Source: Cytophagales bacterium
GTDB lineage: Bacteria; Bacteroidota; Bacteroidia; Cytophagales; VRUD01
DNA: 64,000 bases
NCBI GenBank assembly: GCA_019456305.1
Contig: VRUD01000001.1
Span: forward strand, 9,717-73,716
Reading direction: 5' to 3'
Shown here: positions 206-55,975 of the stretch, one piece after another
Layout of the letters: each line of letters begins with the position of its first letter
Numbering within the stretch: position 1 is the first letter of the stretch
Notes under the pieces: model-generated
What the model was told of the DNA's origin: nothing
The model's database searches: none
Seen by the model: the letters and a program-made list of their open reading frames with translations, nothing else
Position numbers and translations under genes: made by a program

Positions 206-357
206 TAAAGATACTAAATTTAGTTCCTAAAAATCTAGATTAAAAAGAAAGAAAAGTGATTGTAAATGTTATGATACTTCCTTAATTTAGTTGCCGTAAA
301 AGTAAAAAATTAATAATTACACTAATTTAATTTGTGTAATTCGTGTAATTCGTGGTT

Positions 358-2065: not shown

Positions 2066-2218
2066 TGAGTCCACTCCAAAAAGTCAATTTTCGCCACAAA
2101 AGCACAAAAACACAAAATCCCACAAAAGTTATTTGATTGATTTTCAATGTTTTGTGGGATTTAGTGCTTTGGTGTTTTAGTGGCATTTTTTCTTTTTTAA
2201 CTTTTTGGAGTGGACTCA
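2066..2218. repeat. 153-bp imperfect hairpin of the GTG-N5 periodic / GTGGCA-ended family
   Basis: Left arm is TGAGTCCACTCCAAAAAG..GCCACAAAAGCACAAAAACACAAAATCCCACAAAAG. Right arm is its imperfect reverse complement and ends ..GGAGTGGACTCA. The 41 nt at 2150-2190 are identical to 46719-46759. Confidence 0.8.
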
Positions 2219-2227
2219 AAAATGTAT

Positions 2228-4333
2228 TTACAAACTTCTACCCAGATACTTCACAATCAAAAAAAGCATAACGAATCCTAATAAGTAATTAAAGTACCAT
2301 GGAATGCCCATATTCACAAACACCGCACAAACCAATAAGCTTACCACAGCCACAGTGATTGCATAAGGCAATTGCGTTCTCACATGATCTACATGATTAC
2401 AATTGGTTGCTAATGAGCTCAGGATGGTTGTGTCAGAAATGGGCGAGCAGTGGTCACCAAATACCGAACCGGCCAGCACTACGGAAATAACATTATAGAA
2501 TATCGGCATTGATTGCCCGGTTTCAAAACCACTTTGCTGGCATAATAGCCAGGTAGCGGGAAGCATCAAAGGGTATAAAATTGCCATCGTGCCCCAGCTT
2601 GATCCGGTTGAAAATGAGATCAGCGCTGCCAGGATAAAAACTACAGTGGGCATCCATACGGGAGAAATAGCACCGCTGAACAAGGAAGTAAGAAAATCGG
2701 CTGTATGCAGATCCCCGGTTATTTTTGCCAGCGACCATGCCAGGATCAGGATCAGTACTGCAGGAAGCATGGTTTTGAAACCAAATACTAATGTATCCAT
2801 TATTTTTCTTAGCGGCATGATCCTTTGAATGACGGTTAACAGAATGGCTAAAACGACACCTGATAATGACGCCCAGAGCAAAGCCACATAAGCATCAGCA
2901 TTGCCGATAATGATCCCGAGTTTCCTGAAAAATGCTACATCCTGTCCGTTGTTAAGATGGTAAAGGTTTTCCCATACATTCATAAAGGAATAATCCTGTA
3001 TGACAATTCCGGCCTCCAATAAATTATCAAAAGATTTGTGAGCGCCTGTAACCAAAAGCGCTGCTATTGTTACTAAGACTACTGATATAACGGGAATAAA
3101 TGCATTGTACCACTTTTGTTTTACACCCTCGACAGGGTCCAAATCTTTAAGTGATTCATTATTTTCGAATTTCGAATTTCGAGTTTCGAGTTTCGAGTTT
3201 CGAGTTTCGAATTTCGAATTTCGAGTTTCGAATTTCGAGTTTCGAATTTTGAGTTTCGTCCCGAGTACTCGGGATCGAATTTCAGCCTTATACATTGACC
3301 CGAAATCCTTTTTAAAGTATATCAAAAAGAACATAAATACCAGTGTGAAAATGGGATAGAAAGCATATTGCAGCGAATTCAAAAACATTGAATAAGCATT
3401 TTCATTGATCCTTAAGTTAACCGAAGCATCCTGGATATAACCAAGCTCAGCTCCGATCCAGGTGGTAATAAATGCGATAGCAGCTACAGGCGCTGCAGTA
3501 CTATCCACTATATAAGCAAGCTTTTCTCTGGATATCTTGAACTTATCTGTTACCGGGCGCATGGTGTTGCCAACGATAAGTGTATTGGCGTAATCGTCAA
3601 AGAAAATAGCAATGCCCAGAAACCAGGTAATAAATTGCGCACTTCTGGCAGACTTTGCGTATTTTGATAATTTGTCAACAACTCCTGCCATCCCTCCGTT
3701 TTTGGAAATGATCGCTACCATGCCGCCAATCAATGTTGAAAATAAAATTACCGACAAATGCCCTGTGTCCATCATTGCGTTAATGATATAATTATCAAGC
3801 ACGTTGTACATGGCTGGGATCCAGTTTTTAGGATGAAAGCCAAGTAATATAAGCGCTCCTGAAAATATACCCAGGAAAAGCGACACCAACACCTCTCTGA
3901 ATATCAGCGCCATGGCAATGGCAATAAGCGGAGGCAGAATGCTGAGCCAGGCAGGGATATGTCTGATTTTGAAAAATTTAGCTATTCCGGAGTCCGTGTC
4001 CTTTACCGTTATTTTCTTTGATCCGTCAATTATGACAGGTGCAATGCCCATCCCTTCTTTAAACAGGATGATCTTGTTTTTACCATCAAACTGAAATACA
4101 AATTTTCCTTTAATAGACCTGTCTCTGTTGTCGTTCCTGTCTAAAGCGGTTATTTTTACATCTACATTTTTCCTGAACACATATTCGGGCGCTTCTATTA
4201 CAAAGTTTTTGATCCTGAGGGCTTGGACAGAAATACTGTATGTATCTTTGTTTTGCCGGGTAATTTTGATATTTTGTGCACAGGTAAAAATTGAGCATAA
4301 TAACAGCAGGCTTATCAATTGTACCTTTTTCAT
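2228..4333 (-). CDS. NhaC-family Na+/H+ antiporter with an N-terminal extracytoplasmic domain
   Basis: Many TM segments plus the NhaC-type block YANTLIVGNTMRPVTDKFKISREKLAYIVDSTAAPVAA. Start is MKKVQLISLLLLCSIFTCAQ (4331-4333), or 12 nt upstream at 4345. The central loop carries a repeat insertion. Confidence 0.75.
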   Translation of the reverse strand: MKKVQLISLLLLCSIFTCAQNIKITRQNKDTYSISVQALRIKNFVIEAPEYVFRKNVDVKITALDRNDNRDRSIKGKFVFQFDGKNKIILFKEGMGIAPVIIDGSKKITVKDTDSGIAKFFKIRHIPAWLSILPPLIAIAMALIFREVLVSLFLGIFSGALILLGFHPKNWIPAMYNVLDNYIINAMMDTGHLSVILFSTLIGGMVAIISKNGGMAGVVDKLSKYAKSARSAQFITWFLGIAIFFDDYANTLIVGNTMRPVTDKFKISREKLAYIVDSTAAPVAAIAFITTWIGAELGYIQDASVNLRINENAYSMFLNSLQYAFYPIFTLVFMFFLIYFKKDFGSMYKAEIRSRVLGTKLKIRNSKFETRNSKFETRNSKLETRNSKFENNESLKDLDPVEGVKQKWYNAFIPVISVVLVTIAALLVTGAHKSFDNLLEAGIVIQDYSFMNVWENLYHLNNGQDVAFFRKLGIIIGNADAYVALLWASLSGVVLAILLTVIQRIMPLRKIMDTLVFGFKTMLPAVLILILAWSLAKITGDLHTADFLTSLFSGAISPVWMPTVVFILAALISFSTGSSWGTMAILYPLMLPATWLLCQQSGFETGQSMPIFYNVISVVLAGSVFGDHCSPISDTTILSSLATNCNHVDHVRTQLPYAITVAVVSLLVCAVFVNMGIPWYFNYLLGFVMLFLIVKYLGRSL
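3165..3285. repeat. Heptamer array (TCGAATT/TCGAGTT)n plus CCCGAGTACTCGGG core, inside the NhaC ORF
   Basis: About 13 tandem 7-mers at 3165-3258 followed by TCCCGAGTACTCGGGA at 3259-3274. On the - strand this translates as ..EIRSRVLGTKLKIRNSKFETRNSKFETRNSKLETRNSKFE.. with no stop codon. Confidence 0.85.
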
Positions 4334-4540
4334 ATTAAAAGTCATTTAATAATTTGGTGCGGGGTAAAATTATTCTTTTTTTGAAAGATTACTATATTAA
4401 TGTTGAGACAATTTACTACCTTTGATAGCTACATAAAAATAAGAGTTGGCAGCGGCAGCAGCAGGAGGCAGGACTGCCAACTGCCGCTGCCTACTGCTGC
4501 TTGTTTGTTTTGTTGTCATTTGTGTAGCTATTTTCCTACA

Positions 4541-7195
4541 ATGAAAAAACCACTTATCATATTCTTATTAATTTTATCGGGACTGCCTGCTGCCGGCTTA
4601 TTTTCTCAAACCCCTCCCGACAAATCGGGATCTCCGCTGCGCTCCGAAAAGATTGACAGCCTCCTGCAGGTCTTAAAAAATGCCAAAGAAGACACCACTA
4701 AAATAAAAACCCTCATTAATAAAGAGATTGGTAATAAGCAGGGCATTGCAGTTTCAAACATCAATATTGGAGTGATTTATACCGAGCAAAAGCAGTATGA
4801 TAAAGCGATAGAACGAATTAGTGAAGGTTTAAAACTGGCAAAAAACATTGGCCATAAAGAATGGATGCAGCTTGCTTATAAGAGTTTTACAGATTTGTAT
4901 GTAAAACAGAAGAATCATAAAAAAGCTTTAGAGTATCACCAACTTTATGTGCAGACAAAAGACAGCCTCTTCAACGAAGAAAAATCCAAAGACATAGGCA
5001 GGGTGGAAGCAAGGCACGAGACAGAAATGCAGATGATGGAAGAGCAGGCAAAGGTGAAGGCTGAAGCGGATAAGATAGAAAAGGAAAAAAAACGCAGGAA
5101 TTACTGGCAGTATTCGGCTATTTTTATCGTATTTGTTATTTTGTTTTTGAGTTTATTCCTGCTGACAAGGTTTCATATTCCCATAACTGTTGCAGAAGGG
5201 ATCATTTTCACTGTATTTCTGCTGTTTTTTGAGTTTATCCTGGTATTGGCTGAGCCATGGATAGAAGCTATCTCACACGGAGAACCGGCTATTATCCTTG
5301 CATGCAATGCAGCGCTTGCAGGAATGATTTTTCCCTTTCACAGTTTCTTTGAAGCTAAGGTGAAAGAAAGGATAGTAAAACAGTCGGCAGTTGGCAATAG
5401 GCAGTTGGCAAAAAGAAAATCCAATATTACAAAACTTACCATGTTGTTGATGATTGCCTTTACTAATAGCTTTTACAGCTATTCTCCTACTTACACAGAG
5501 TCGAACTTTTCTAAACCTATGAAGTTTAGGAAAGTTATTGTTAAGGGAGCGCTTAGTTTTTCCAATTCAGATAATCAAGCAAAAACCCAATTCGTAAATC
5601 GTAAGTCTGAAATCGTAAATCCTACCATTGATTCTCTTGAAAATATGCTCAAAGCCCTTTCTGTTGGTGAGGGACGGGGCAAAAATGAAATTTCCAGATT
5701 AAAAATTCTAACCCGACTCATCCTGGAATACGAATTAACTGACCCTAATAAAGCCTTGCAATACGGAATGGAGGGTTTGGCTTTAGCAAAGCGTATGGCA
5801 AATTTGCCTGATGCATTTTTAGCAAAAGAAGGTAAAATAGGTGTAGCATCTTGTTTAAATAATATGGGGCTGGTTCATCAGGCACAAGGCAGCTACCAAA
5901 AAGCTACGGATCAATTCCTCTATTCATTAAAAATTAAAAAAGAATTATTTAACTCCCTCCCTACTGGTAAGGACAGTGAATGGATTAAACATGGAATTGC
6001 CAACAGCTTAATCAATCTCGGAGAAGTAAACAGACTTCAGGGAAATTACGACAAAGCCATTGATTATGATCTGCAATCTTTACAAAATTATGAGCAGTTA
6101 AAAGAATCATCTTTCAAAGCTCTGGCAAGGTCTGGCCAAATAGGGATTTCAAATTGTTGGAATAATATTGCTATAATTTATTATTACCAGCGTAACTATG
6201 AAAAAACCCTGGATTATTTCTTTCAATCTATAAAAATTAAAGAGAAACTAGGCAATAAAAGATTAATTGCAGAAAATTTAGGTAATATAGGGGTTATTTA
6301 TAAAATTCAGGGTAAAATTGAAAAAGCAATGAAGTATTATATGAAATGTTTAACACTAAGAAAGCAATTGGGATCAACTGGAGGATTTTCCAGCATTTTG
6401 ATTAATATCGCAAATATTTATACCATGCAGGGTAAATATAAAAAAGCCCTAAACTACCACTTTCAGGCATTGAAAATTACTCAACAGTTAGGTTATAAAG
6501 ATCAATCTGCTTTATGTCTGGATAATATTGGGGATATATATTCAAAGCAAAAGTATTATAAAAAGGCCATCTTATACTTTCACAAAGGTATAAATATTGC
6601 AAAGGAGATTGGATCTAAAATAGTACTCATGGATAGCTATAAACACCTTTCTAATACGTATGCCCAACTGGTAGAACACCCTCTTGCTCCTATTACCAGG
6701 GCAGTTGCTTACAAGCAAGCTTTTGAATACCACAAATTATATGCAGCTATTAAAGACAGCCTGTTTAATGAAGAAAAATCAAAAGAGATCGGCAGGTTGG
6801 AAGAGCACTACCTGATAGAAAAGAAAATAGCGAAAGAAAAAGCTAAAGCCAAAGTAGAGGCGGTGATAAAATCCGAAAAAAAAGCGCAAAGGCATAGACT
6901 TCAATTTATGGGCAGCTTTATTGTCATTGTAGCATTGTTAATAGTTGTATTCACACTTGCCGGGGTTTATATTCCGATTGGTTTTGCAAAAATACTGATT
7001 TTCATTATCTTCGTGCTGTTATTTGAATTTATCCTGGTGTTGTTAGACCCAATGGTAGATGAATTTTCCGGTGGAGCACCGGCAATAAAGCTTGCTTTCA
7101 ATGCCATGGTGGCAGGGATGATGTATCCTTTACACAGGTTTCTTGAGTCTAAACTTAAAAGTATGATATTAAAAAAGAAAACGAAGAGAACATAA
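4541..7195 (+). CDS. TPR-repeat membrane protein; apparent fusion of two tandem paralogous units
   Basis: MKKPLIIFLLILSGLPAAGLFSQ is a signal-like start at 4541. The block TPR - DSLFNEEKSK(D/E)IGR coiled coil - 3 TM with LLFFEFILVL occurs twice (about 4541-5380 and about 5640-7195). The 4400 start of the track ORF reads through an upstream hairpin. Confidence 0.6.
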   Translation: MKKPLIIFLLILSGLPAAGLFSQTPPDKSGSPLRSEKIDSLLQVLKNAKEDTTKIKTLINKEIGNKQGIAVSNINIGVIYTEQKQYDKAIERISEGLKLAKNIGHKEWMQLAYKSFTDLYVKQKNHKKALEYHQLYVQTKDSLFNEEKSKDIGRVEARHETEMQMMEEQAKVKAEADKIEKEKKRRNYWQYSAIFIVFVILFLSLFLLTRFHIPITVAEGIIFTVFLLFFEFILVLAEPWIEAISHGEPAIILACNAALAGMIFPFHSFFEAKVKERIVKQSAVGNRQLAKRKSNITKLTMLLMIAFTNSFYSYSPTYTESNFSKPMKFRKVIVKGALSFSNSDNQAKTQFVNRKSEIVNPTIDSLENMLKALSVGEGRGKNEISRLKILTRLILEYELTDPNKALQYGMEGLALAKRMANLPDAFLAKEGKIGVASCLNNMGLVHQAQGSYQKATDQFLYSLKIKKELFNSLPTGKDSEWIKHGIANSLINLGEVNRLQGNYDKAIDYDLQSLQNYEQLKESSFKALARSGQIGISNCWNNIAIIYYYQRNYEKTLDYFFQSIKIKEKLGNKRLIAENLGNIGVIYKIQGKIEKAMKYYMKCLTLRKQLGSTGGFSSILINIANIYTMQGKYKKALNYHFQALKITQQLGYKDQSALCLDNIGDIYSKQKYYKKAILYFHKGINIAKEIGSKIVLMDSYKHLSNTYAQLVEHPLAPITRAVAYKQAFEYHKLYAAIKDSLFNEEKSKEIGRLEEHYLIEKKIAKEKAKAKVEAVIKSEKKAQRHRLQFMGSFIVIVALLIVVFTLAGVYIPIGFAKILIFIIFVLLFEFILVLLDPMVDEFSGGAPAIKLAFNAMVAGMMYPLHRFLESKLKSMILKKKTKRT

Positions 7196-7201
7196 CTTTG
7201 T

Positions 7202-7221
7202 AATCCGATAGCTATCGGATT
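7202..7221 (+). terminator. Perfect 20-bp palindrome just after the TPR gene stop
   Basis: AATCCGATAGCTATCGGATT begins 7 nt after the stop at 7195. Confidence 0.45.
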
Positions 7222-7430
7222 GATTTAAAAATTATTATGGATGTTATTTTTTGGATAAAATTGATCGCTTTCTGGGCATTTGCTCTTGTTTTCTGTTTAT
7301 TATTTGCCCCGGAAGGTGATACACTTATATTTGGAAATAAGCTAAAACGTGGGACAGTAATTAAAATTATGTATTTATTCTTTTGGATTCTCTCAAGCTT
7401 GTTAATTCTTTGGGGCGTCATATAAATATA

Positions 7431-7742
7431 GTTGGCAATCGGCAATCGGCAGTCGGCAGTCCACAATCGACAGTCCACAGTCGGCAGTTGGCAGTTGGCA
7501 GTCCACAGTCCACAATCGGCAGTTGGCAGTCCATCCCGAGTACTCGGGAGCAGTCGGCAATTGTTTTTTGCCGACTGGGGACTGCCGACTGCCGATTGAT
7601 TAAGTTAAGTTTCTAAATCCAGTTGCCATATTGTTTTAATGGTTTGATTGTTATTTTCTTTTTTGTCGACTGTGGACTGCCGACTGCCGACTGATTTTTT
7701 TGCCGACTGGAGACTGTAGATTGCCGACTGCCGACTGCCAAC
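7431..7742. repeat. ~310-bp foldback built from GGCAGTC/GGCAGTT/CCACAGT heptamers around a CCCGAGTACTCGGG core
   Basis: 7431-7533 holds heptamers in GGCAGTY orientation and the core is at 7534-7549. 7570-7606 and 7664-7742 hold the complementary words (CCGACTG, GACTGCC). It lies between convergent genes. Confidence 0.8.
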
Positions 7743-7745
7743 TTT

Positions 7746-9296
7746 TTATTCACTTATTCCCTTTCCCGGGAGTGCAGCAATTATTCTATTGGCCATCTTC
7801 TGTATATTATCACCGATGATCCGTTGGATGTTATTTGAGTTTGAGTTATAGAAGATCTTTATTTTGCTGCCTGCAATTTGTTTGCCCTCCCTGTTATAAA
7901 TGGAGTAATGAACTATAAAATCCCGTTCATAATCCTGCCTCGTCCTGTCTAAACAATGCTCATAATTGGTATTTACTTCAAATTGAGTAACGAAGATATA
8001 ATATCCCAGGTCGTATTTTTTGTTGAAGTATTCAAAAAATTTAGGGTCTTTGATCTTTGCTCCAAAATATTTATTTTCAAACTTCATCTTGCCAAACCTG
8101 CCTGAAAAAGGAGATTCAGGGCTTTTTTTTAATTTTCTTTTCACTGTTTCGAGAGATACAGGCAAAGCCTTTTCTTTTGGAGGGGCATAATTATCTACAT
8201 AATCCGGTTCATTGACCAAATCCTGGTAATTATAAGTTAACGACCTGTATATTTTATTCAGATCAGTTACCGAATCTTCAATGGAGCCTCCCATAAGATG
8301 CACGGTTTCATAATCAGGGGACTGGATCATTGTATTTAAGTTTTTACGGAAAACCTGCCTTACTTTAGTTCTTGGAATACCAGATGCAGCAGCGATCTCA
8401 TCATCAGCATCGGAAAAATATAAATAAGGGTCAAAAGGTACGACTAAAACTTTTTTCTGGGTTCCGGGAACTGGGTTCTTGTCGGAGCGAAGCATAGATC
8501 CCCCCGAGTACTCGGGGGGGGTATTGGTTTCTGGGTACTGATCATCTATTCCCTCTATTTCCCCTTTTACTTCTATTTCCGTATTTACTTCTTTTTCCTC
8601 TATTTCCTCTACATCCTCTACTTCCTTTACTTCCTTTATTTCCTTTACTTTCTTCATATCTTCTTTTTTGCGTGACTTTATATATTCCTTTGCTAACACT
8701 TTTTCCACTGTTTCAACTTCACCCTTTGCCTTATATCCAACAATAAGTTTCTGGCCTGCTTTTATATGCAGGTCATTCAATCCCATTAATTGATCAAGAG
8801 ATATATTGTATTTTTTTGATAAACTCCAAAGGGTCTCTCCTGGTTTTACAATATGAATTATAGCTTCTTTGAATGTTTGTTTTTCTACCAGTATTGTAGG
8901 TTGATGTTCTCCGGTTTCCACGATATGTATGATAATACCTTTTTCAGAAATTCCGGATCTTTTGATGACATCAGGATGATATGGAATGTTGATGACCTGC
9001 CCTGTTTTCAAACCGTTTTCCAATGCAGGATTAATTTCCAGTAGCCCGGCAATGGGTACGCCATGTTTTGTAGAAATTCCATAGATGGTCTCACCGGCAG
9101 AAACCAGGTATATGAGATGGAGCTTGCCTTTGATCTTCTGGACACCGATCGAATCGCAGGAAGGATATGGGGAAATAGAGGAATAGGGAAATAAGGATTT
9201 CGAGTTTCGAGTTAAGGGTATAAGAGTATGTGTTATAGCAGAATAAACTATTGAACTAAAAAAAAACAATAGAAAAATAACAGAATTGTATTTCAT
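7746..9296 (-). CDS. LysM-domain protein (2 LysM) with an acidic KE-rich linker and an unknown C-terminal domain
   Basis: Two LysM-like blocks: YLVSAGETIYGISTKHGVPIAGLLEINPAL..GQVINIP and HIVKPGETLWSLSKKYNISLDQLMGLNDL..GQKLIV. It has an N-terminal signal sequence. Confidence 0.7.
   Translation of the reverse strand: MKYNSVIFLLFFFSSIVYSAITHTLIPLTRNSKSLFPYSSISPYPSCDSIGVQKIKGKLHLIYLVSAGETIYGISTKHGVPIAGLLEINPALENGLKTGQVINIPYHPDVIKRSGISEKGIIIHIVETGEHQPTILVEKQTFKEAIIHIVKPGETLWSLSKKYNISLDQLMGLNDLHIKAGQKLIVGYKAKGEVETVEKVLAKEYIKSRKKEDMKKVKEIKEVKEVEDVEEIEEKEVNTEIEVKGEIEGIDDQYPETNTPPEYSGGSMLRSDKNPVPGTQKKVLVVPFDPYLYFSDADDEIAAASGIPRTKVRQVFRKNLNTMIQSPDYETVHLMGGSIEDSVTDLNKIYRSLTYNYQDLVNEPDYVDNYAPPKEKALPVSLETVKRKLKKSPESPFSGRFGKMKFENKYFGAKIKDPKFFEYFNKKYDLGYYIFVTQFEVNTNYEHCLDRTRQDYERDFIVHYSIYNREGKQIAGSKIKIFYNSNSNNIQRIIGDNIQKMANRIIAALPGKGISE
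8500..8519. repeat. CCCCCCGAGTACTCGGGGGG palindrome inside the LysM ORF
   Basis: Perfect 20-bp palindrome, translated in frame as ..PPEYSGGS.. Confidence 0.8.
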
Positions 9297-12394: not shown

Positions 12395-13057
12395 ATGGAA
12401 ACTCAACAAAAACCCATAACGATTTACACAGAAGCCAACCCCAATCCAAACTCGCTGAAGTTTGTCGCTGATTTTATGTTGGCGCCTGAAGGCAGCAGCT
12501 TTGATTATCCCGATGTCAGCAGCGCTGCTGACGCACCATTGGCATTGGCGTTATTTCAGTTCCCGTTCGTAAGGCGTGTGTTTTTTGCATCCAATTTTGT
12601 TACCATCACAAAGGATGAGAATACAAGCTGGGAAGATATTGCTCCTTCGCTTAAAGATTTTATTAAGAGTTATCTTGAAGCAGGAAAGCCAATACCGCGC
12701 AGCAGCCCCCCTCTAACTCCCGGCCCACCTGAATCGGAGAAACGGGGAATCGGAGAAACGGAGAGAAGGAAAACGAAGCAATTCACCGATTCGGTAAGGA
12801 ATAGTGGAGGAGGGGCTCCTGATTCTGAAATAGTAAAGAAAATAAAGAATGTTTTAGAACAGTATGTCCGTCCTGCGGTTGAAATGGATGGCGGCAATAT
12901 TAGTTTTGACTCATTTCAGGATGGTGTTGTTAAGGTAAACCTGCAGGGCGCCTGCAGCGGCTGCCCTTCTTCTGCAATAACATTAAAGCAAGGGATAGAA
13001 AACCTTTTTAAACAGATGGTTCCGGAGGTGAAGGAAGTGGTGGCTGAGGGGGTTTGA
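12395..13057 (+). CDS. Nfu/NifU-like Fe-S cluster scaffold protein
   Basis: Nfu N-terminal domain (NPNSLKF...) and a C-terminal NifU domain with the CSGCPSS pair. The inter-domain linker carries a repeat insertion. Confidence 0.8.
   Translation: METQQKPITIYTEANPNPNSLKFVADFMLAPEGSSFDYPDVSSAADAPLALALFQFPFVRRVFFASNFVTITKDENTSWEDIAPSLKDFIKSYLEAGKPIPRSSPPLTPGPPESEKRGIGETERRKTKQFTDSVRNSGGGAPDSEIVKKIKNVLEQYVRPAVEMDGGNISFDSFQDGVVKVNLQGACSGCPSSAITLKQGIENLFKQMVPEVKEVVAEGV
12728..12807. repeat. CGGAGAAA-word hairpin element in frame in Nfu; homologous to 55450-55605
   Basis: CCTGAATCGGAGAAACGGGGAATCGGAGAAACGGAGAGAAGGAAAACGAAGCAATTCACCGATTCGGTAAGGAATAGTGG. It encodes PESEKRGIGETERRKTKQFTDSVRNSGG. Confidence 0.85.
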
Positions 13058-27414: not shown

Positions 27415-27420
27415 GTTTTC

Positions 27421-27497
27421 TTGCCACGAAGACACGAAGACACTAAGGTGTTATAAAAAAAATAACTTTGTGATTCTTTGTGTCTTAGTACCTTTGA
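27421..27497. repeat. GTGGCA-family hairpin after the T9SS gene
   Basis: TTGCCACGAAGACACGAAGACACTAAGGTG..loop..CTTTGTGATTCTTTGTGTCTTAGTACCTTTGAG. Its right arm repeats at 28516-28541. Confidence 0.7.
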
Positions 27498-27538
27498 GTT
27501 TGTTTAATCTTTAACAAAACGATGTCATCGCTATATCT

Positions 27539-27754
27539 TTGAATATTAACTTTAAAAAAAATAAAAATGAAAGAAATGAGATTTATGAGCAAATTTCTTC
27601 TGATCCTGAAATTATGCACGGAAAACCTTGTATTAAAGGAACAAGAATTCCAGTTCAATTGATAGTTTCAATGCTCGCTGATGGAATGTCTGAACAAGAA
27701 ATTATTAAAGAATATCCTTCATTGACAATCAATACTGTTTTAATTTTGCAGTAA
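27539..27754 (+). CDS. DUF433-like protein (TTG start, C-terminally short)
   Basis: ISSDPEIMHGKPCIKGTRIPVQLIVSMLADGMSEQEIIKEYPSLT matches the DUF433 core seen twice more at 62370 and 63037. It lacks the usual C-terminal helix. Confidence 0.55.
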   Translation: MNINFKKNKNERNEIYEQISSDPEIMHGKPCIKGTRIPVQLIVSMLADGMSEQEIIKEYPSLTINTVLILQ

Positions 27755-27772
27755 TTTCTTTATCTTTGAAGC

Positions 27773-28090
27773 ATGGATAAAATTGAAATAATAAAAGAAT
27801 TAAAAGAATTACTCATCAAATATTTCCCTGGCGAAATTGCTCAGGTAATATTATTTGGTTCCCAGGTAAACGGAGATGCGCGGGAATATTCTGATTATGA
27901 TGTGCTTATTGTTGTAAATCGTAATTATGATTGGAGATATGAAAGGAAAATATTAAGGGTTGTCTATAAGAATGATCTTAAATACCATATCCTTACTGAT
28001 TTCACACTTATTTCAAATAAAGAATTAAATACCCTTAAAGGTAAACAACCGGTCGTGCTTGAAGCATTTGAAAACGGTATTGTAATATGA
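27773..28090 (+). CDS. Nucleotidyltransferase-domain protein (MNT-type antitoxin)
   Basis: The FGSQVNGDAREYSDYDVLIVV motif is the minimal NTase GS..(D/E).D signature. 105 aa. Confidence 0.8.
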   Translation: MDKIEIIKELKELLIKYFPGEIAQVILFGSQVNGDAREYSDYDVLIVVNRNYDWRYERKILRVVYKNDLKYHILTDFTLISNKELNTLKGKQPVVLEAFENGIVI

Positions 28091-28491
28091 CACTTAAACA
28101 TGAAGATAGAGAGAGTTTGATCAGATACAGAACTGAGCAGGCAGAAGATGCCATTGAAGATGCTCAAATTTTGATCGCAAAAGACAGGTTGAAAGCGGCA
28201 GTAAACAGAATATATTATGCAGTGTACTATATTGTTTTTGCTTTAGCTCTTAAGCACAAATTTAAAGGTACAAAACATTTGCCCCTGATAGCATGGTTTG
28301 ATAAAAAGTTTGTAGAAACAAATGTAGTTGATGTAAAGTATGGCGAAATGTACAGGGAAGCATTTAAAAAACGTTCTGAAGCTGATTATGGAACTTTTAC
28401 AAAATTCACCAAAAAGCAGGTTCTGGATTTGTTTGATCAAATGATGGAATTTGTTAAAAAAATTAAACATCTCCTTTATTCTGATGATTGA
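28087..28491 (+). CDS. HEPN-domain protein (toxin partner of MNT)
   Basis: Four-nt ATGA overlap with the NTase gene. The helical 134-aa protein with ..AVNRIYYAVYY.. and ..KRSEADYG.. fits the HEPN family. Confidence 0.75.
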   Translation: MTLKHEDRESLIRYRTEQAEDAIEDAQILIAKDRLKAAVNRIYYAVYYIVFALALKHKFKGTKHLPLIAWFDKKFVETNVVDVKYGEMYREAFKKRSEADYGTFTKFTKKQVLDLFDQMMEFVKKIKHLLYSDD

Positions 28492-28515
28492 TTTAAATTT
28501 TAAATCTTAGTGAAA

Positions 28516-28541
28516 CTTTGTGTCTTAGTACCTTTGTGGCA
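28516..28541. repeat. Half GTGGCA-family element; 21-bp direct repeat of 27476-27496
   Basis: CTTTGTGTCTTAGTACCTTTG is identical at 27476-27496 and 28516-28536. Here it continues ..TGGCA. Confidence 0.8.
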
Positions 28542-32641: not shown

Positions 32642-32806
32642 ATCAATTAATAAAAAAAGGTGTTCAGTCAGGTAAATTAACTTATAAGGGATATGGTGAA
32701 GAAAAACCGGTTGTGCCCAACGATACAAAAGAAAAACGGCAGCTTAACAGGAGGGTGGAGTTTGAAATTTTAAATTAAAAAGGTTTTCGTGGTGTCGGGT
32801 GTTTCC
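32642..32806. repeat. 165-bp direct repeat, copy 2
   Basis: See 31701-31865. Confidence 0.9.
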
Positions 32807-32852
32807 TTGTAGAGACGTTGCATGCAACGTCTCTACAAGGAAACACCCGACA
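32793..32852. repeat. 60-bp perfect palindrome (nested hairpin elements)
   Basis: TGTCGGGTGTTTCCTTGTAGAGACGTTGCA|TGCAACGTCTCTACAAGGAAACACCCGACA is an exact reverse complement. It is followed by TCAGGTGGAAACACCTGA at 32859-32876. Confidence 0.9.
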
Positions 32853-34573: not shown

Positions 34574-34696
34574 TTCAAATAAATTTAGATTGTTTCATGC
34601 TGCAAATTTAATGATTTTCTTTACAGAAAAAATCTTATTTTAAAAAAAATCTGTGTAATCTGTGTAATCTGTGGTTAAACTTACTACTTTTGAATC

Positions 34697-38044: not shown

Positions 38045-38052
38045 GAAAAAAA

Positions 38053-38116
38053 TGCCACAAAGACGTACTAGATACACAAAGGTAATTTTACATATTTTGT
38101 GCCTTAGTTAGTGGCA
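38053..38116. repeat. GTGGCA-family hairpin between preA and the ABC operon
   Basis: TGCCACAAAGACGTACTAGATACACAAAGG..loop..TTTTGTGCCTTAGTTAGTGGCA. Confidence 0.7.
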
Positions 38117-38123
38117 AGAAAAA

Positions 38124-42000: not shown

Positions 42001-42732
42001 TTTGGAAAGGAAAAAATGAAGAAATTTCTTAAATATGAATTGGACAGATATTTAAGAGGTAGAAGTTTTGAACGAAAAAAGGAACTGCCGTTGATATTGG
42101 TAGAAGGACAGGGATATATTCATTATCAGAAAGGTGGGTTGGTAATGTACGCATTGCGTGATTACATAGGAGAGGATTCATTAAATGAAGCGTTAAGAAA
42201 ATATATCAAAGCAGTAGCTTATCAACAACCCCCATATACCAATTCACTGGAATTTTTAAGCTATATCAAATCAGCTACCCCCGATTCTCTGCAATATATA
42301 ATAAAGGATATGTTTGAAACGATTACCTTGTATGAAAACAAAACCAATGAAGCTGTACTTAAAAAACGCCCGGATGGTAAGTATGCTGTTAAGATTAAGG
42401 TAGCGTCTAAAAAGTTACGGGCTGACAGTTTGGGAAATGAAAAAGAGATCCCTGTTAACGACTGGATAGATATTGGGATATTTGGTAAATCCGAATTGAA
42501 AGCAGAGACGCCCAATTTGGACGTCTCTGCTTTCAATTCGGAAAAAAACTCTAATTCGGATAAATCCTCTATTGGTAAGCCTTTGTACCTGAAAAAACAT
42601 AAAATTAACCAGCCGGAAATGGAATTTGAAATTATTGTAGACGAGCTTCCCTGGAAAGCCGGCATAGATCCCTATAATAAATTAATTGACCGTGATTCGG
42701 GAGATAATGTAAAGAAGGTAGGGGCTGGTTGA
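38995..42732 (+). CDS. ABC-2-type permease fused to an M1-family zinc aminopeptidase domain
   Basis: The ATG at 38995 overlaps the ATPase stop (ATGTTTAA). About 12 TM segments run to roughly 40800. Then comes a peptidase domain with HEVAHQWW...E zinc site. Two hairpin insertions are carried in frame. Confidence 0.8.
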   Translation: MFKEIFFFELKYRFKRPANYIYFGIFFLLTFLAVNGMAGGFKGVVISVGSGGGGKVLANSPYQIYLLITLLSYFGILVTSAIMGNPVYRDFEHQTHSLFYSKPISKFGYLAGRFLGSLVIAFLVFLGLGIGILTASWMPWLDQDYIGPFYAMAYVQPYLVTVLPNLIFTGAIFFALATLTRNILSTYVGSVVFLVLYFMGLSLLSDLENETIAALLDPFGESATGLATKYWTVAEKNTLIIPFTGHLFFNRIIWLSAGVLIFAFAYKKFSFSYFISEKRSRKKLKQQTLETETIDWAGKFLIPRATRIFSFSTNLVQYIKLTGQELKGIVKNVYFIAILFAGVVLMFVNGSQVGKFYGTTTYPVTYQVISIISGSFGLFFLIIIIFYAGELVWRERTTKINQIFDALPIPNWVPFSSKLTALILLQVVLLLVVMLCGLIIQVFKGYYHFETGLYVKSLFGLQFIELALLCVLAMLVQVIVNHKYLGHFIMVVYFLVSIFMAQFGWEHKLYDYADDPGYTYSDMNGFGHFILPIGWFKIYWTAFAVSLAILSNLFWVRGLETSLKWRTQLARRQFVKPTKIAFILALLVFFISGGFIFYNTNILNEYMTSNEREELSVEYEKRYKKFENSPQPRITDVNVNVDIYPLSRDVAFKGHYILKNKTNEAIDSIHIDINRNITINDMSFDRNHKMVLEDEKIGYYIVELSKPLLPGENVVLQFDLAFTTKGFKNSGSNTSIVENGTFLHSNSYLPAIGYNEGGELSDDDTRKKHGLKPKERMALVNDSNARLNNYISHDADWITFEATISTSPDQIAIAPGYLQREWTEGNRRYFHYKMDCKILNFYSFLSARYEVIRDSYGPTSPPNSPPKSPQRGAVRGAIEIYYHKGHEYNLDAMVKAIKRSLDYYTENFSPYQHKQVRILEFPRYASFAQSFPNTIPYSEAIGFIAQVDEDDEDDIDYPFYVTAHEVAHQWWAHQVIGGNVQGATVMSETMSQYSALMVMEKEFGKEKMKKFLKYELDRYLRGRSFERKKELPLILVEGQGYIHYQKGGLVMYALRDYIGEDSLNEALRKYIKAVAYQQPPYTNSLEFLSYIKSATPDSLQYIIKDMFETITLYENKTNEAVLKKRPDGKYAVKIKVASKKLRADSLGNEKEIPVNDWIDIGIFGKSELKAETPNLDVSAFNSEKNSNSDKSSIGKPLYLKKHKINQPEMEFEIIVDELPWKAGIDPYNKLIDRDSGDNVKKVGAG
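41572..41625. repeat. 54-bp hairpin in frame in the M1 domain
   Basis: AGCCCCCCTAACAGCCCCCC (41572-41591) is the perfect reverse complement of GGGGGGCTGTTAGGGGGGCT (41606-41625). It encodes ..SPPNSPPKSPQRGAVRGA.. Confidence 0.9.
42491..42541. repeat. 51-bp hairpin (AGACG-CCCAATTTGG-CGTCT core family) in frame in the M1 domain
   Basis: CCGAATTGAAAGCAGAGACG (42491-42510) is the perfect reverse complement of 42522-42541, with loop CCCAATTTGGA. It encodes SELKAETPNLDVSAFNS. Confidence 0.9.
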
Positions 42733-46631: not shown

Positions 46632-46660
46632 TGATTTTGGTTAGTTGGAAAGTGTTTTTT

Positions 46661-46787
46661 GCCACAAAAGCACAAAAGCACTAAATCCCACTAAAAATTA
46701 ACTAATTGATTTTCAGGGTTTTGTGGGATTTAGTGCTTTGGTGTTTTAGTGGCATTTTTATTTTTTGGACTTTTTAGAGTGGACTCA
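46661..46787. repeat. Second copy of the 2066-2218 hairpin (outer left arm missing)
   Basis: GCCACAAAAGCACAAAAGCACTAAATCCCAC..loop..TTTTGTGGGATTTAGTGCTTTGGTGTTTTAGTGGCATTTTT..GAGTGGACTCA. Confidence 0.8.
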
Positions 46788-47047
46788 AATAGTAAAATTA
46801 AATTCATGGCAAAAGTACTTCATCTCTCACAGAATATCAACCAAATTTATTTTATAAAAAAAACATCACTAAAAATTTGTATATTAAAAAACCATCCAAT
46901 ACCTTCGCCCGCAATTTTTGATCCACGCCTGTAGGCGCGGGATCAATATTTAATTTATTATTTAAACAAACACGGAACACGGAACGTACAGACGCCCAAA
47001 TTGGGCGTCTCAACATTCCTCAAATTCCTCAAAACAAATTAATTATC

Positions 47048-47610: not shown

Positions 47611-47652
47611 AAAAAAGCCCTGCTCCCGAGTACTCGGGACGGGGCTTTTTTT
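47611..47652 (+). terminator. Intrinsic-terminator-like hairpin with the CCCGAGTACTCGGG core in its loop
   Basis: AAAAAAGCCCTGC-TCCCGAGTACTCGGGA-CGGGGCTTTTTTT, 24 nt after the stop. Confidence 0.7.
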
Positions 47653-49066: not shown

Positions 49067-49124
49067 CAACTACATGAATGTTTTTTTAAAAGAATAAAAA
49101 TCGTTAAATTAGTAATTACCTTTT

Positions 49125-49214
49125 GGGCATCTCTAAAAACTACACCATACATTCCCCTCTATCAAGAGGGGCAAGGGGTGTGTTTTAAAAAATATGTAGT
49201 TTTTAGAGATGCCC
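49125..49214. mobile_element. 90-bp MITE-like element (copy 2) with a 12-bp target-site duplication
   Basis: Identical to 13883-13972. It is flanked by TAATTACCTTTT at 49113-49124 and 49215-49226. Confidence 0.8.
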
Positions 49215-49693
49215 TAATTACCTTTTTTAAAAAACACCCCCATCCCCAGCCTGAACACAAACGCATTTGATAGAACATAATAGTCTGCATTTGCCTCAAC
49301 AGCCCAGTGATCGTTAAGCATAAAATCATTTCCCAGACCGAATGAAACATCAAAACTACTTCCCTTTAGTGGGGCTTTTACCAAATAATAACCTTTACTT
49401 CTTAAAAAAAAGGTTTCAGAAAAATATAACCTTAGACCGAGCGCTGCAGCGCTTCTGCTTAAAGAATTAAAATACTCAAAACCCCCGGATAAGGCGAATT
49501 TATCAGCAGCAAAGTAGTTAAGGTCAAATCCAAAGCCAACGCTTTTACCAAAATTCTTGAATGGCTTTTTGTTGTTTGTATTGTATAGATTAACCCCACC
49601 GTTTAGCAGAAAATCTCCCTGGTAAGGTTGGGCATTTGCTGTTAAAACACAACTCATTGCCGCTACAAAGACAGAAAATTTGAATGCTTTCAT
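49214..49693 (-). CDS. Small outer-membrane beta-barrel protein
   Basis: Signal peptide MKAFKFSVFVAAMSCVLTANA|Q followed by alternating beta-strand pattern. 159 aa. Its stop codon TAG is formed at the MITE junction. Confidence 0.65.
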   Translation of the reverse strand: MKAFKFSVFVAAMSCVLTANAQPYQGDFLLNGGVNLYNTNNKKPFKNFGKSVGFGFDLNYFAADKFALSGGFEYFNSLSRSAAALGLRLYFSETFFLRSKGYYLVKAPLKGSSFDVSFGLGNDFMLNDHWAVEANADYYVLSNAFVFRLGMGVFFKKGN

Positions 49694-51977: not shown

Positions 51978-52763
51978 TTAAATGCAGTATCTATTCCATA
52001 TCTCCCATGCCTTCTCCGCCTGCAAATACAACATTTCAAGCCCGTTTTTAATTTTAGCTCCTTTTTCTTTTCCTTTCCTTAGAAACAAAGTTTCTTCGGG
52101 ATTATACACAAGGTCAAAAAGGAAATGCGAATGATCAATTGCCTTGTATGGTATGTCAGGGCATTTATTCACATCCGGGAACATGCCTAAAGGTGTTGCG
52201 TTGATTATTAATTTATGTTGTTTTACTATTTCTTCAGTTAGTTCATTATATTGGGTACTGAGTTCTGGGTTCTCGGTGCTGGGTTTTTGGCGGGAAACAA
52301 GTTGATAATCTATACCAAGGTTTTTAAATACTATGCTGACAGCTTTTGCCCCTCCCCCGGTTCCCAGGATCATTGCTACTAAATTTTTGGACGAATCTCC
52401 TGGCAAAAATTTCAACAAAGATTCTTTGAAACTAACTACATCTGTGTTGTAACCAATAAGCTTTGAACTTTGAACTTTGAACTCTGAACTCTGAACTTTT
52501 ATCGTATTAACAGCACCAGCTTCTTCAGCTATTTCATCCAGTTCATCTAAATAAGGAATGATTGATTCTTTATAGGGAATGGTAACATTTAAACCGGTTA
52601 TATCCGGATTATTTTTTATAAAATCAGGAAAATCACTTATTTGTTTTAATTCAAATAGTTCATAACAAGCATTTTTTATGCTTCCTTTATTAAACTTTTC
52701 TGTAAAATACTGTGATGAAAAAGAATGGGTGAGGGGAAAACCTATTAATCCAAAAGTTCTCAA
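51978..52763 (-). CDS. aroE: Shikimate dehydrogenase
   Basis: GLIG.PL.HS.S, NVTIPYK, GAVNTI...GYNTD and GTGGGAKA motifs. It carries two heptamer-repeat tracts in frame. Confidence 0.9.
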   Translation of the reverse strand: MRTFGLIGFPLTHSFSSQYFTEKFNKGSIKNACYELFELKQISDFPDFIKNNPDITGLNVTIPYKESIIPYLDELDEIAEEAGAVNTIKVQSSEFKVQSSKLIGYNTDVVSFKESLLKFLPGDSSKNLVAMILGTGGGAKAVSIVFKNLGIDYQLVSRQKPSTENPELSTQYNELTEEIVKQHKLIINATPLGMFPDVNKCPDIPYKAIDHSHFLFDLVYNPEETLFLRKGKEKGAKIKNGLEMLYLQAEKAWEIWNRYCI

Positions 52764-54817: not shown

Positions 54818-55975
54818 TTACAAGCCATACCTTCTTTTTAATTCATCACACGTCCATCTTATGGTGTCATTGATGTCTCTGAAATTCAAGCCTTCTTTTC
54901 CGTTAGACAGGCTTAATAAATTCCTTATCTTTCCATTATTGTAATGCAATGAATTTAAAGATGATTTTACAATATCTTTAGTGACCAAGGGCGGCTTTCC
55001 TGTGAAAAGAGATCTTATTATTTCAAATCTCCATGCAATACCACCCCAAAATGGTGATACCATGATATTGGGTTTTCTTTTATCAAAATTCAGCGCAATA
55101 ATATCAAATAATTCCTTATAAGATATTTTACCGGCAAAAATTAAGTACCTTTCATTATTTATCCCGGTATTGATCAACTGCAGCGTGATTTCAGCCAGAT
55201 CCCTCACATCAATATAATGCACCTCCCGGGTAGTATAAAAAGGATATTGTTTCCATACATATTGAAATATTTTTGAACTGCCTTTTTTCCAATTACCAGG
55301 ACCTAATACCACTGCCGGGTTTAATATAACGGCATTGAGTCCTTCTTCTATGCCTCGCCATACTTCCATTTCCGCAAGATATTTTGTTTGGGCGTATAAT
55401 GACACTTCTTCATAGACTGAAAATTGGATTTTTTCATTAATACCAGCCTTCCCCCCACTATTCCTTACCGAATCGGTGAATGGGTGAATCGGTGAATCGG
55501 TGAATTGCTTCGTTTTTCTTCTCTCCGTTTCTCCGATTCCCCGTTTCTCCGTTTCAGGAGGGCTGGTGTGGCTGCCGCTTATTCCCCGTTTCTCCGATTC
55601 AGGGAGGCTGGTAGGTTTGCCTATTGCCGCAACCGAACTTAAATGACAAAGTTTTTTTACACCTTTTTTGATACATACATTTACAATATTTGAGGTACCC
55701 TCTACATTTGTTTTGAATATTAATTTCTTGTCATGGTAAGATAATGAAACCATGGCAGCCGTATGGATAACCGTATCAACGCCTTCAATACTTTTTTCTA
55801 AACCCGTAATATCAAGTATATCTCCTTCTATCCACTCGATTTTATCAGCAATATCAGCAACGAGAGACAGATCGCTCGTTTTTCTTTTTAAAGCGCGCAG
55901 GCGATTGCCTTGCTGTAGTAATTTTCTGGCTATAAAACTCCCTACCAAACCAGTGCAGCCGGTGATGAAAAACAT
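54818..55975 (-). CDS. NAD-dependent epimerase/dehydratase (SDR) family protein
   Basis: GCTGLVG Rossmann motif at the N-terminus and a YAQTK catalytic Y..K. An insertion of about 50 aa lies between SSVAAIG and the YxxxK region. Confidence 0.8.
   Translation of the reverse strand: MFFITGCTGLVGSFIARKLLQQGNRLRALKRKTSDLSLVADIADKIEWIEGDILDITGLEKSIEGVDTVIHTAAMVSLSYHDKKLIFKTNVEGTSNIVNVCIKKGVKKLCHLSSVAAIGKPTSLPESEKRGISGSHTSPPETEKRGIGETERRKTKQFTDSPIHPFTDSVRNSGGKAGINEKIQFSVYEEVSLYAQTKYLAEMEVWRGIEEGLNAVILNPAVVLGPGNWKKGSSKIFQYVWKQYPFYTTREVHYIDVRDLAEITLQLINTGINNERYLIFAGKISYKELFDIIALNFDKRKPNIMVSPFWGGIAWRFEIIRSLFTGKPPLVTKDIVKSSLNSLHYNNGKIRNLLSLSNGKEGLNFRDINDTIRWTCDELKRRYGL
55450..55605. repeat. Expanded copy of the CGGAGAAA-word element, in frame in the epimerase
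   Basis: Its rc contains CCTGAATCGGAGAAACGGGGAAT...CGGAGAAACGGAGAGAAGAAAAACGAAGCAATTCACCGATTC..GGTAAGGAATAGTGG. It encodes ..PESEKRGISGSHTSPPETEKRGIGETERRKTKQFTDSPIHPFTDSVRNSGG.. Confidence 0.85.

Follow-up and report, generated by a model that had tools for sequence, protein, structure and literature searches.

We analysed a window of 64,000 nucleotides from a Cytophagales bacterium (assembly GCA_019456305.1, contig VRUD01000001.1, forward-strand positions 9,717 to 73,716), which carries intergenic hairpins whose arms are written as tandem 8- to 9-nt words with a GTG or CAC anchor. The 153-bp foldback at 2066-2218, which we call copy A, is, as far as its sequence can tell, a complete miniature transposable element of the inverted-repeat type (MITE): it has terminal inverted repeats (TIRs), a target-site duplication (TSD), the size and multiple copies of such an element and an autonomous partner. 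The TIRs, the 6-bp TSD and the identifiable partner together are why we regard it as a derivative of a transposon. The original prediction for this window had grouped the foldback with shorter sites as a superfamily of hairpins ending in GTGGCA; it had missed that the foldback is a predicted transposon derivative whose periodic module is a passenger, carried in other backbones as well. We put at about three in four the probability that the elements as a class are selfish transposon derivatives and their relics, moved by a DDE transposase with the module as cargo. The parts of copy A, in coordinates of the window, are as follows.

2061-2066, no strand: left TSD copy, AAAAAT, read directly; the hexamer recurs at 2218-2223
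2067-2217, no strand: MITE copy A, made of TIR, short linker, GTG-word hairpin module, T-rich linker and TIR
2067-2084, plus strand: left TIR, GAGTCCACTCCAAAAAGT (18 bp), which also bounds transposase-encoding elements of 1.8-1.9 kb
2093-2127, plus strand: A-rich arm of the module, GCCAC A AAAGCAC A AAAACAC A AAATCCCAC AAAA
2150-2185, plus strand: T-rich arm of the module, TTTTGTGGGATTTAGTGCTTTGGTGTTTTAGTGGCA, which fits the pattern GTGYTTTKGTGYTTTWGTGGC
2200-2217, minus strand: right TIR (ACTTTTTGGAGTGGACTC on the plus strand)
2218-2223, no strand: right TSD copy, AAAAAT

Copy A thus spans 151 bp between two TIRs, with AAAAAT on both sides. Its outer arms (2066-2087 and 2197-2218) are 95% complementary and enclose an inner quasi-palindrome at 2093-2184, GCCAC-A-AAAGCAC-A-AAAACAC-A-AAATCCCAC ... 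GTGGGATTT-A-GTGCTTT-G-GTGTTTT-A-GTGGC, in which a mismatched base stands between each pair of consecutive words. The predicted RNA fold of 2060-2225 has an energy of -69.2 kcal/mol (z -10.4 against shuffles). The same architecture is common to 20 other copies from genomes and metagenomes, in a size class of 151-153 bp, and elements delimited by the outer repeat measure 150-153 bp; these GTG-word MITEs contain no open reading frame (ORF), and several copies occur per metagenome-assembled genome (MAG). In copy A, a T-run lies 3′ of the module on the strand that is antisense to both neighboring genes, one of which encodes an antiporter whose nearest relative found is 59% identical.

The same 17- to 18-bp TIR was found in 17 elements from genomes and in 43 from metagenomes, the latter by a scan with the outer repeat alone, which yielded an independent, TIR-ascertained sample of 43 short elements (90-318 bp). 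Perfect 6-bp direct repeats stand exactly at the ends of 10 of the 17 paired elements in the genome set, with a mean of 5.18 of 6 positions identical, as against 0 at other offsets and 0.66 with permuted partners, and perfect 6-bp TSDs flank 20 of the 43 metagenome MITEs. Twelve metagenome elements of 1802-1895 bp have these TIRs too and contain a single ORF of about 540 aa, with the domains PF05598 (DUF772) and PF01609 (DDE_Tnp_1) both past their Pfam cut-offs; one of these full-length insertion sequences (ISs), at locus L164, where the transposase is encoded at 2124-3746, has the perfect 6-bp TSD AAGGGT. Homologues of the transposase, at 34-57% identity, are present in 20 further TIR-ascertained loci besides L164. 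The best NCBIfam model for the protein is IS1182 (NF033551), which it matches over model positions 34-487 of 488 with 104.5 and 101.6 bits; the curated cut-off of that model, 270 bits, is not reached. In its length of 1.8-1.9 kb, its single ORF, its DUF772 and DDE_Tnp_1 domains and its end-to-end alignment with the model the partner is like the IS1182/IS5 group. Unlike members of the IS1182 family, it falls below the curated cut-off (104 versus 270 bits), and it was found in metagenomes, not in the window; because of the score we call it a distant relative of that group and not a member. Copy A shares its ends with these transposase-encoding elements and is itself non-autonomous, and so would need the partner's transposase in trans.

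Many other interiors are found between these TIRs, in elements that measure 90-186 bp and have size classes near 130, 141, 152 and 165 bp. Eight loci (L127, L151, L211, L218, L186, L192, L241 and L170) have them around other hairpins, with sequences such as ..CTGAGCGGAGTCGAAGG.. / ..CCTTCGACTCCGCTCAG.. and ..CCCCTTCAGGGGTCGGGG.., and the IS1182-like family appears from these interiors to shuttle a whole set of unrelated palindromic modules.

Within the window, a second long hairpin (copy B, 46660-46786) has the inner palindrome, the T-rich linker and the right outer repeat of copy A. The 41-nt stretch said to be identical in the two, TTTTGTGGGATTTAGTGCTTTGGTGTTTTAGTGGCATTTTT, is exactly so; it occurs twice in the window, at 2150-2190 and 46719-46759, and in none of the shuffles. 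No recognizable left TIR was found on copy B, which we therefore take as a one-ended relic of the same MITE; its region (46640-46795) folds at -55.3 kcal/mol (z -7.3 against shuffles). Copy B and the shorter sites are listed here.

46660-46754, no strand: copy B's hairpin module of GTG words, TGCCAC...GTGGCA, whose right arm matches copy A's exactly (90.7 bits)
46769-46786, minus strand: right TIR of copy B (ACTTTTTAGAGTGGACTC)
27420-27503, no strand: degenerate module with words GAAGACAC / GTGTCTT (z -4.4; 38 bits, E 4e-7)
28506-28541, plus strand: lone T-rich arm ending in GTGGCA
38051-38118, no strand: strongly decayed module with both termini kept, TGCCAC...GTGGCA (23 bits, E 0.002)
334-355, plus strand: lone period-9 arm, GTGTAATTC GTGTAATTC GTGG, with related words in loci L115, L097 and L159
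34653-34674, plus strand: lone period-9 arm, GTGTAATCT GTGTAATCT GTGG

The sequences quoted in the original prediction all lie where it placed them, and the periodicity it described is no artefact of the background: GTG-N5/6-GTG-N5/6-GTGG occurs 7 times in the window as against 0.06 +/- 0.28 in 100 dinucleotide shuffles. Of all trinucleotides, GTG/CAC shows the strongest over-representation at period 8 (about 84x); the window has no excess of GTGGCA by itself (27 versus 22.3 expected). Our results thus support a single superfamily of periodic-arm elements with a TGCCAC/GTGGCA terminus. That all of its sites are hairpins held for the two long copies, 27420-27503 and 38051-38118, and not for 28516-28541, 34652-34676 and 335-357, which are lone arms. 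A covariance model, of the kind proposed as a check, had the same outcome: it recognizes four of the seven window sites (copies A and B at 88-91 bits, and the modules at 27420-27503 and 38051-38118 at 38 and 23 bits) and scores nothing at the three lone arms. At 27420-27503, which begins 5 nt past a gene for a type IX secretion system (T9SS)/PKD protein, TGCCAC is kept in the left arm and GTGGCA is lost from the right; the right arm (27466-27496) has 21 identical bases, CTTTGTGTCTTAGTACCTTTG, in common with the lone arm at 28506-28541. Of the other lone arms, 335-357 has a weak 8-bp stem only and 34652-34676 is a tandem repeat without a partner arm. The period-9 sites nevertheless have a relative in the MITE at L159, which carries the reverse complement of the GTGTAATCT word type (GCCAC AGATTAC..). 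These shorter sites are probably decaying hairpins or single arms of the same superfamily, a judgment to which we attach the same probability as, and jointly with, the reading of the elements as selfish DNA. As had been claimed, the sites are close to stop or start codons, at distances of 0-57 nt, in a region where intergenic spacers are short in any case. Genes with the T9SS Por_Secre_tail domain are also present in the window.

A DUF433 / NTP_transf_2 (MNT) / HEPN toxin-antitoxin cassette at 27539-28491 is flanked by the same-orientation T-rich arms at 27466-27496 and 28506-28541. An integron-like arrangement was considered for it and dropped, the ORFs between adjacent elements elsewhere being unrelated housekeeping and membrane proteins.

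Beyond the window, the module is a quasi-palindrome of about 92 nt, TGCCAC(NAAARCAC)n...(GTGYTTTN)nGTGGCA, with arms of 2-4 tandem 8-nt words. Among the matches listed from species-representative genomes, the arm pattern GTGYTTTKGTGYTTTWGTGGC occurs in more than 120 stretches, with at most 6-7 stretches per genome. Most of these matches are from Bacteroidota (Bacteroidales, Prolixibacteraceae/Draconibacterium, Saprospiraceae/Lewinellaceae and Chitinophagaceae), and others are from Balneolaceae, Ignavibacteria, a few Planctomycetota and other phyla, in AT-rich as well as GC-rich genomes; the pattern has 0 matches in 2.9 million viral contigs, and the 166-base stretch 2060-2225 has no plasmid match. 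The covariance model was derived from 39 full hairpins and detects 76 in 100 of the pattern-matching stretches. Neolewinella antarctica DSM 105096 is among the complete genomes with the module. Within the GTG-word sub-family of MITEs the layout is constant (TIR, short T-rich linker, TGCCAC arm, TTGAT-containing loop, GTGGCA arm, T-run, TIR), and the words drift, to AAAGCAC, AAGACAC or AAGACTC, as do the termini, to TACCAC/TGACAC. The same backbone at L159 holds 9-nt words, GCCAC AGATTACTC TGATTATCAC, with similar words at L115 and L097, which bears out the inclusion of the period-9 sites in the original grouping. The module also lies within a second, unrelated MITE of 135-142 bp with the TIR GGCAATGTCATTAAGTTAAGG. 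Because GTG words are missing beside the TIRs of full-length IS copies, because these TIRs carry other interiors and because the module occurs in another backbone, we treat the module as separate from the IS. For the first of these reasons we rejected the idea that the words were copied from the parent IS by slippage in gap repair; that the arms are the ends of a larger IS was rejected as well, no A-arm...T-arm pair standing 0.5-4 kb apart in any locus.

Twenty-six modules are "naked", typically with a T-run before and an A-run after the hairpin. At L050 a copy is flanked by inverted heptamer arrays, and at L035 (7081-7419) at least four GTG-word hairpins follow one another head to tail with a period of about 102 bp, starting right past a stop codon, with a GC-rich mini-palindrome in the right arm of each. 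L107 has the inverse of the hairpin arrangement, with outward arms (T-arm GTGGC, 38-nt spacer, GCCAC A-arm) in a unit that occurs twice, at 6960-7075 and 7590-7690, about 630 bp apart. One pair of orthologous sites shows what became of a copy: in L003 and L020, whose flanking proteins are 91-92% identical, the hairpin is kept at the same site, and the arm that played no part in ascertainment has an identity of only about 74% and no longer has its CAC anchors. We therefore see decay there, not strong constraint. In a second pair (L013 and L070, from Lewinellaceae/Phaeodactylibacter MAGs), a lone arm and its flank are shared and one locus has an extra GC-rich insert of about 26 nt (..cccgtccatgcggccgggtaaaagtt..) before the arm; the difference is a putative insertion polymorphism of a mini-palindrome.

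We propose that these elements are non-autonomous mobile DNA and its debris in the genome of an uncultured, Cytophagales-like member of the Bacteroidota. A DDE transposase acting in trans would recognize the 18-bp TIRs of copy A and insert the element with duplication of a 6-bp A/T-rich target; the likely supplier is the 540-aa protein of the 1.8- to 1.9-kb IS distantly related to IS1182/IS5. The interior of the MITE would not come from that IS. It would be a separate module with words CAC-N-AAA-R / Y-TTT-N-GTG, closed by TGCCAC/GTGGCA, that hitch-hikes in at least two MITE backbones and can also stand alone. Copies are probably neutral or mildly harmful, and the module with its T-run may terminate transcription in an orientation-dependent way, which would account for the antisense position of surviving copies relative to their neighbors. 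The word periodicity may have arisen by tandem duplication of words or through recognition by a protein, rather than from a function as RNA. In support of this proposal we count the TIRs, the TSD, the autonomous partner, the multicopy dispersal, the decay seen in the orthologous pair and, as described below, the lack of RNA-type constraint.

Several observations weigh against it. A perfect direct TSD flanks only 2 of the 12 full-length IS copies (L164 and L135), and several of these copies show reverse-complementary flanks instead. No homologue of the transposase was found in the 64-kb window, which bears on current mobility in this genome. Neither an IS-type TIR nor a TSD (3-8 bp, offsets of 0-3) was found around the 26 naked modules. 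Neolewinella antarctica has both arms in a good state of conservation around cores that are wholly unrelated, which simple copying and decay does not predict. An alignment of 21 MITEs has more covariation than its shuffled versions (0.147 versus 0.119; 0 of 500 shuffles); the excess rests on a few A-T to G-C switches in an alignment that includes transposase-bound repeats, and could reflect shared ancestry, yet it allows for some selection for pairing. Finally, the orientation of the T-run side, which in a ratio of 11:1 is antisense to the co-directional genes around it, shows that the elements are not inert in transcription; the bias probably reflects selection against sense insertions with a polar, terminator-like effect.

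Correia/NEMIS of Neisseria, ERIC and RUP are examples of bacterial MITEs that descend from DDE insertion sequences. Like these, copy A is small (151 bp) and has no ORF, its TIRs are identical to those of a transposase-encoding IS and its TSD is of fixed length, and the elements are intergenic, multicopy, folded into a long hairpin and, to judge from the orientation bias, probably polar in their effects on transcription. They differ in that the interior is an independent palindrome of 8-nt words, not a deletion remnant of the parent IS, and that this module also lives elsewhere. Cyanobacterial short tandemly repeated repetitive (STRR) heptamers and nested small dispersed repeats are 7- to 9-nt tandem words in intergenic DNA and even inside genes, and eukaryotic foldback transposons have long arms of sub-repeats with a conserved terminus; with STRRs and foldback transposons there is resemblance only, since phylum, words and enzymes differ. 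The closest precedent in the Bacteroidota is BrickBuilt, a species-restricted MITE of Porphyromonas gingivalis with 23-nt direct tandem repeats in one orientation (PMC4596501). BrickBuilt influences transcription (PMC4596501), and the elements described here resemble it as intergenic, multicopy Bacteroidota MITEs with an interior of short tandem repeats and, to judge from the orientation bias, probably in that influence as well; unlike it, they pair two inverted arrays of 8-nt words into a hairpin, and they occur in several phyla. A full-text search with the arm and TIR strings gave chance primer matches only, and the literature we found on MITEs and repetitive extragenic palindromes (REPs) of Bacteroidetes (the BrickBuilt paper, a paper on GTAG/CGTC REPs and a survey of HUH enzymes) does not describe the GTG-word element. 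Neither Rfam nor the literature that we searched contains the module. The novelty lies in the module itself, a cross-phylum palindrome of about 92 nt built of 8-nt GTG words with regularly spaced mismatches and exchanged among MITE backbones.

The main alternative starts from the arms. The GTG-word hairpin may be a doublet, comparable to the inverted REP doublets known as REPINs, of a unit of about 35 nt, copied as single-stranded hairpin DNA by an HUH enzyme, such as a REP-associated tyrosine transposase (RAYT), or by another enzyme that reads 8-nt words, with the MITEs having captured it or been invaded by it. The elements are like REPs and REPINs (PMC3116915, PMC3733652, PMC6006769) in being extragenic, imperfect hairpins that occur as single arms, inverted doublets and tandem clusters, the counterparts of REP singlets, REPINs and bacterial interspersed mosaic elements (BIMEs), and in the naked modules without TSD. 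The regularly spaced mismatches fit as well, because HUH enzymes read irregular hairpins, and RAYT classes with "atypical" REPs are reported from Bacteroidetes (subclass 2.6) and Planctomycetes (class 3) (PMC6006769). A dedicated enzyme that recognizes or lays down the arms word by word, in what would be an independent cross-phylum class of palindromic elements, is pointed to by the arms conserved around unrelated cores of 12-40 nt in one genome, by the naked copies, by word sets that change together within an arm, by the systematically unpaired base between words and by palindromes nested in palindromes; in the window, 7- to 9-nt arrays also stand beside several copies of the mini-palindrome CCCGAGTACTCGGG. 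Against a REPIN origin, the foot of the hairpin has no GTAG/GTGG or CGTC tag, and the arms are 35 nt of AT-rich words, unlike the 20- to 40-nt GC-rich stems of REPs and the short GC-rich hairpins of 20-35 nt published for subclass 2.6. In further contrast to REPINs, no RAYT was found flanking the elements, and the window copy has a TIR and TSD of DDE type. When 712 ORFs from 120 loci were clustered, no family occurred in more than 9 loci and none was a transposase; no Y1 transposase was found among the ten scanned ORFs of the window or among its genes with precomputed Pfam hits listed. The free decay of one arm at the orthologous site speaks against it as well. We consider a REPIN-like origin unlikely, and the existence of a dedicated word-reading enzyme doubtful to the same degree. 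If true, it would mean a REPIN/RAYT-like or end-addition-like system in Bacteroidota and Planctomycetota.

A second alternative is that the hairpins are host terminators or mRNA-stabilizing stem-loops that evolved for that role, the words being a lineage-specific style of terminator. The stems are very stable, the module in the MITEs has a T-run (GTGGCATTTTTTCTTTTTT) on one side, several window sites lie 0-10 nt past stop codons, and the T-run is so strongly biased in orientation as to imply an effect on transcription. Yet TIRs and TSDs mark insertion, not evolution in situ. Of 66 hairpins, 42 are in spacers between tandem genes, 19 in divergent spacers and only 5 in convergent ones, near the share of intergenic bases in each class. 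The T-run side is overwhelmingly antisense, as described above, and lies downstream of a gene's 3′-end in only 1 of 16 cases; naked copies have an A-run after the hairpin on both strands, and a scan with a consensus terminator found nothing at copies A or B. The original statement that these are not simple terminators therefore stands, and we regard an origin as terminators as quite improbable. Promoter elements were rejected for the lone arms, of which 17 face a start and 12 a stop codon.

It is very improbable that a host protein, such as a nucleoid protein or an operator or centromere binder of the ribbon-helix-helix (RHH) type, binds the arms in double-stranded DNA as arrays of 8-bp boxes, which would make the inverted arrays functional platforms for binding. 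An 8-bp box period is used by RHH proteins, as in the metboxes of MetJ and in ParG/parH; each arm here keeps its own word consensus without compensation in its partner, and the same words occur in AT-rich and GC-rich genomes of several phyla. Against such boxes, no associated gene was found in the 120 loci, placement is random with respect to promoters and genes, transposons carry the module passively and copies decay at the orthologous site. Moreover, 24-43% of the MITE copies have a mismatch at the center of the GTG anchor, where one arm reads GAG.

The pairing data bear on a role as RNA. No Rfam family was obtained for the hairpins, whether by gathering score or by E-value threshold, the best hits being generic long-hairpin miRNA models far short of what they require (48 versus 94 bits), and the covariance model scores both strands alike. 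In the pattern-ascertained alignment, 80.0% of cells are paired as against 80.4% in shuffles, and the positions between words are paired in no more than 23-38% of copies. The arms vary independently at the R/Y position, with 14 A-C mismatches to 6 G-U pairs on the transcribed strands. That the module is a structured non-coding RNA gene, whether a small RNA or a processing substrate, is thus extremely improbable despite its exceptionally stable predicted fold and widespread family, given equal strand scores, covariation not beyond relatedness, mismatches commoner on the transcribed strand, the lack of an Rfam match at threshold and variable cores.

Other repeats crowd the same window. The mini-palindrome CCCGAGTACTCGGG occurs 10 times (6 perfect) as against 0.02 expected, at the following sites.

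184, 3260, 7535, 8503, 11914, 23269, 44290, 47625, 49040 and 56024: mini-palindrome CCCGAGTACTCGGG

It caps a larger, locally different hairpin at 8 of the 10 sites, with no local stem evident at 8503 and 44290; at 47625 and 49040 the stem resembles a terminator, and heptamer arrays lie beside the copies at 3260, 7535, 11914 and 44290. The mini-palindrome has the look of a small element that inserts at the tips of hairpins. One copy lies inside the antiporter gene beside copy A (ORF 2228-4345, minus strand, NhaC-type Na+/H+ antiporter), where 3163-3275 holds an in-frame (TTTCGAG)x13.7 and the mini-palindrome and encodes (FETRNSK)n; this insert of about 30 aa sits in a variable loop and is absent from five homologues of 54-59% identity. 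At 7430-7743, an intergenic block of 300 bp is made of heptamers (CAGTCGG, CAGTTGG, CAGTCCA, CAATCGG and the inverse CCGACTG) and can fold around the mini-palindrome into any of several long hairpins; the block is reminiscent of the STRR heptamers of cyanobacteria. Arrays of 7-9 nt are also found inside ORFs, at 12731-12775, 55470-55555, 8545-8650, 5381-5410, 5592-5621 and 52461-52499; the genes that bear them include a NifU-like gene (12731-12775), the minus-strand ORFs 54818-55975, 51978-52763 and 7746-9296, and a tetratricopeptide repeat (TPR) gene. The array at 55470-55555 consists of two mutually inverted arrays, GAATCGGT and TCTCCGTT.

Near-perfect palindromes of 50-60 bp at 32793-32852, 42490-42542, 56810-56862 and 49122-49217 have cores ..GTAGAGACG.. 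/ ..CGTCTCTAC.. that recall CGTC-tagged REPs (PMC3733652) and a RAYT-2.6 REP of Pedobacter saltans, CCGTAGAG..CGTCTCTACGG (PMC6006769, Table S1). A tight palindrome, AATCCGATAGCTATCGGATT, directly follows the stop of the TPR gene (7198-7225), and near-identical GCCGATAGCTATCGGC palindromes are nested in the GTG arms of a Saprospiraceae MAG (L035). On the minus strand, 132-168 matches the DUF805b RNA motif RF02914 at 41.6 bits, above its gathering score, and adjoins a hairpin capped by the mini-palindrome (175-206).

The transposon reading would explain the conspicuous long intergenic hairpins of environmental Bacteroidota genomes, and because the hairpins are transposon-borne they should be masked or annotated as repeats, not as terminators, small RNAs or regulatory sites. 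It supplies a concrete IS/MITE pair, with a defined TIR, a 6-bp TSD and a 540-aa transposase, that can be tested experimentally. It also suggests that one IS family shuttles many hairpin "cassettes", among them a GTG-word module common to several phyla. The antisense bias of the T-run suggests that insertions are filtered by their polar effect on transcription, which matters for operon prediction. The word periodicity, together with small palindromes nested even in a transporter gene, may be the mark of a process that generates repeats and that has yet to be described for this phylum.

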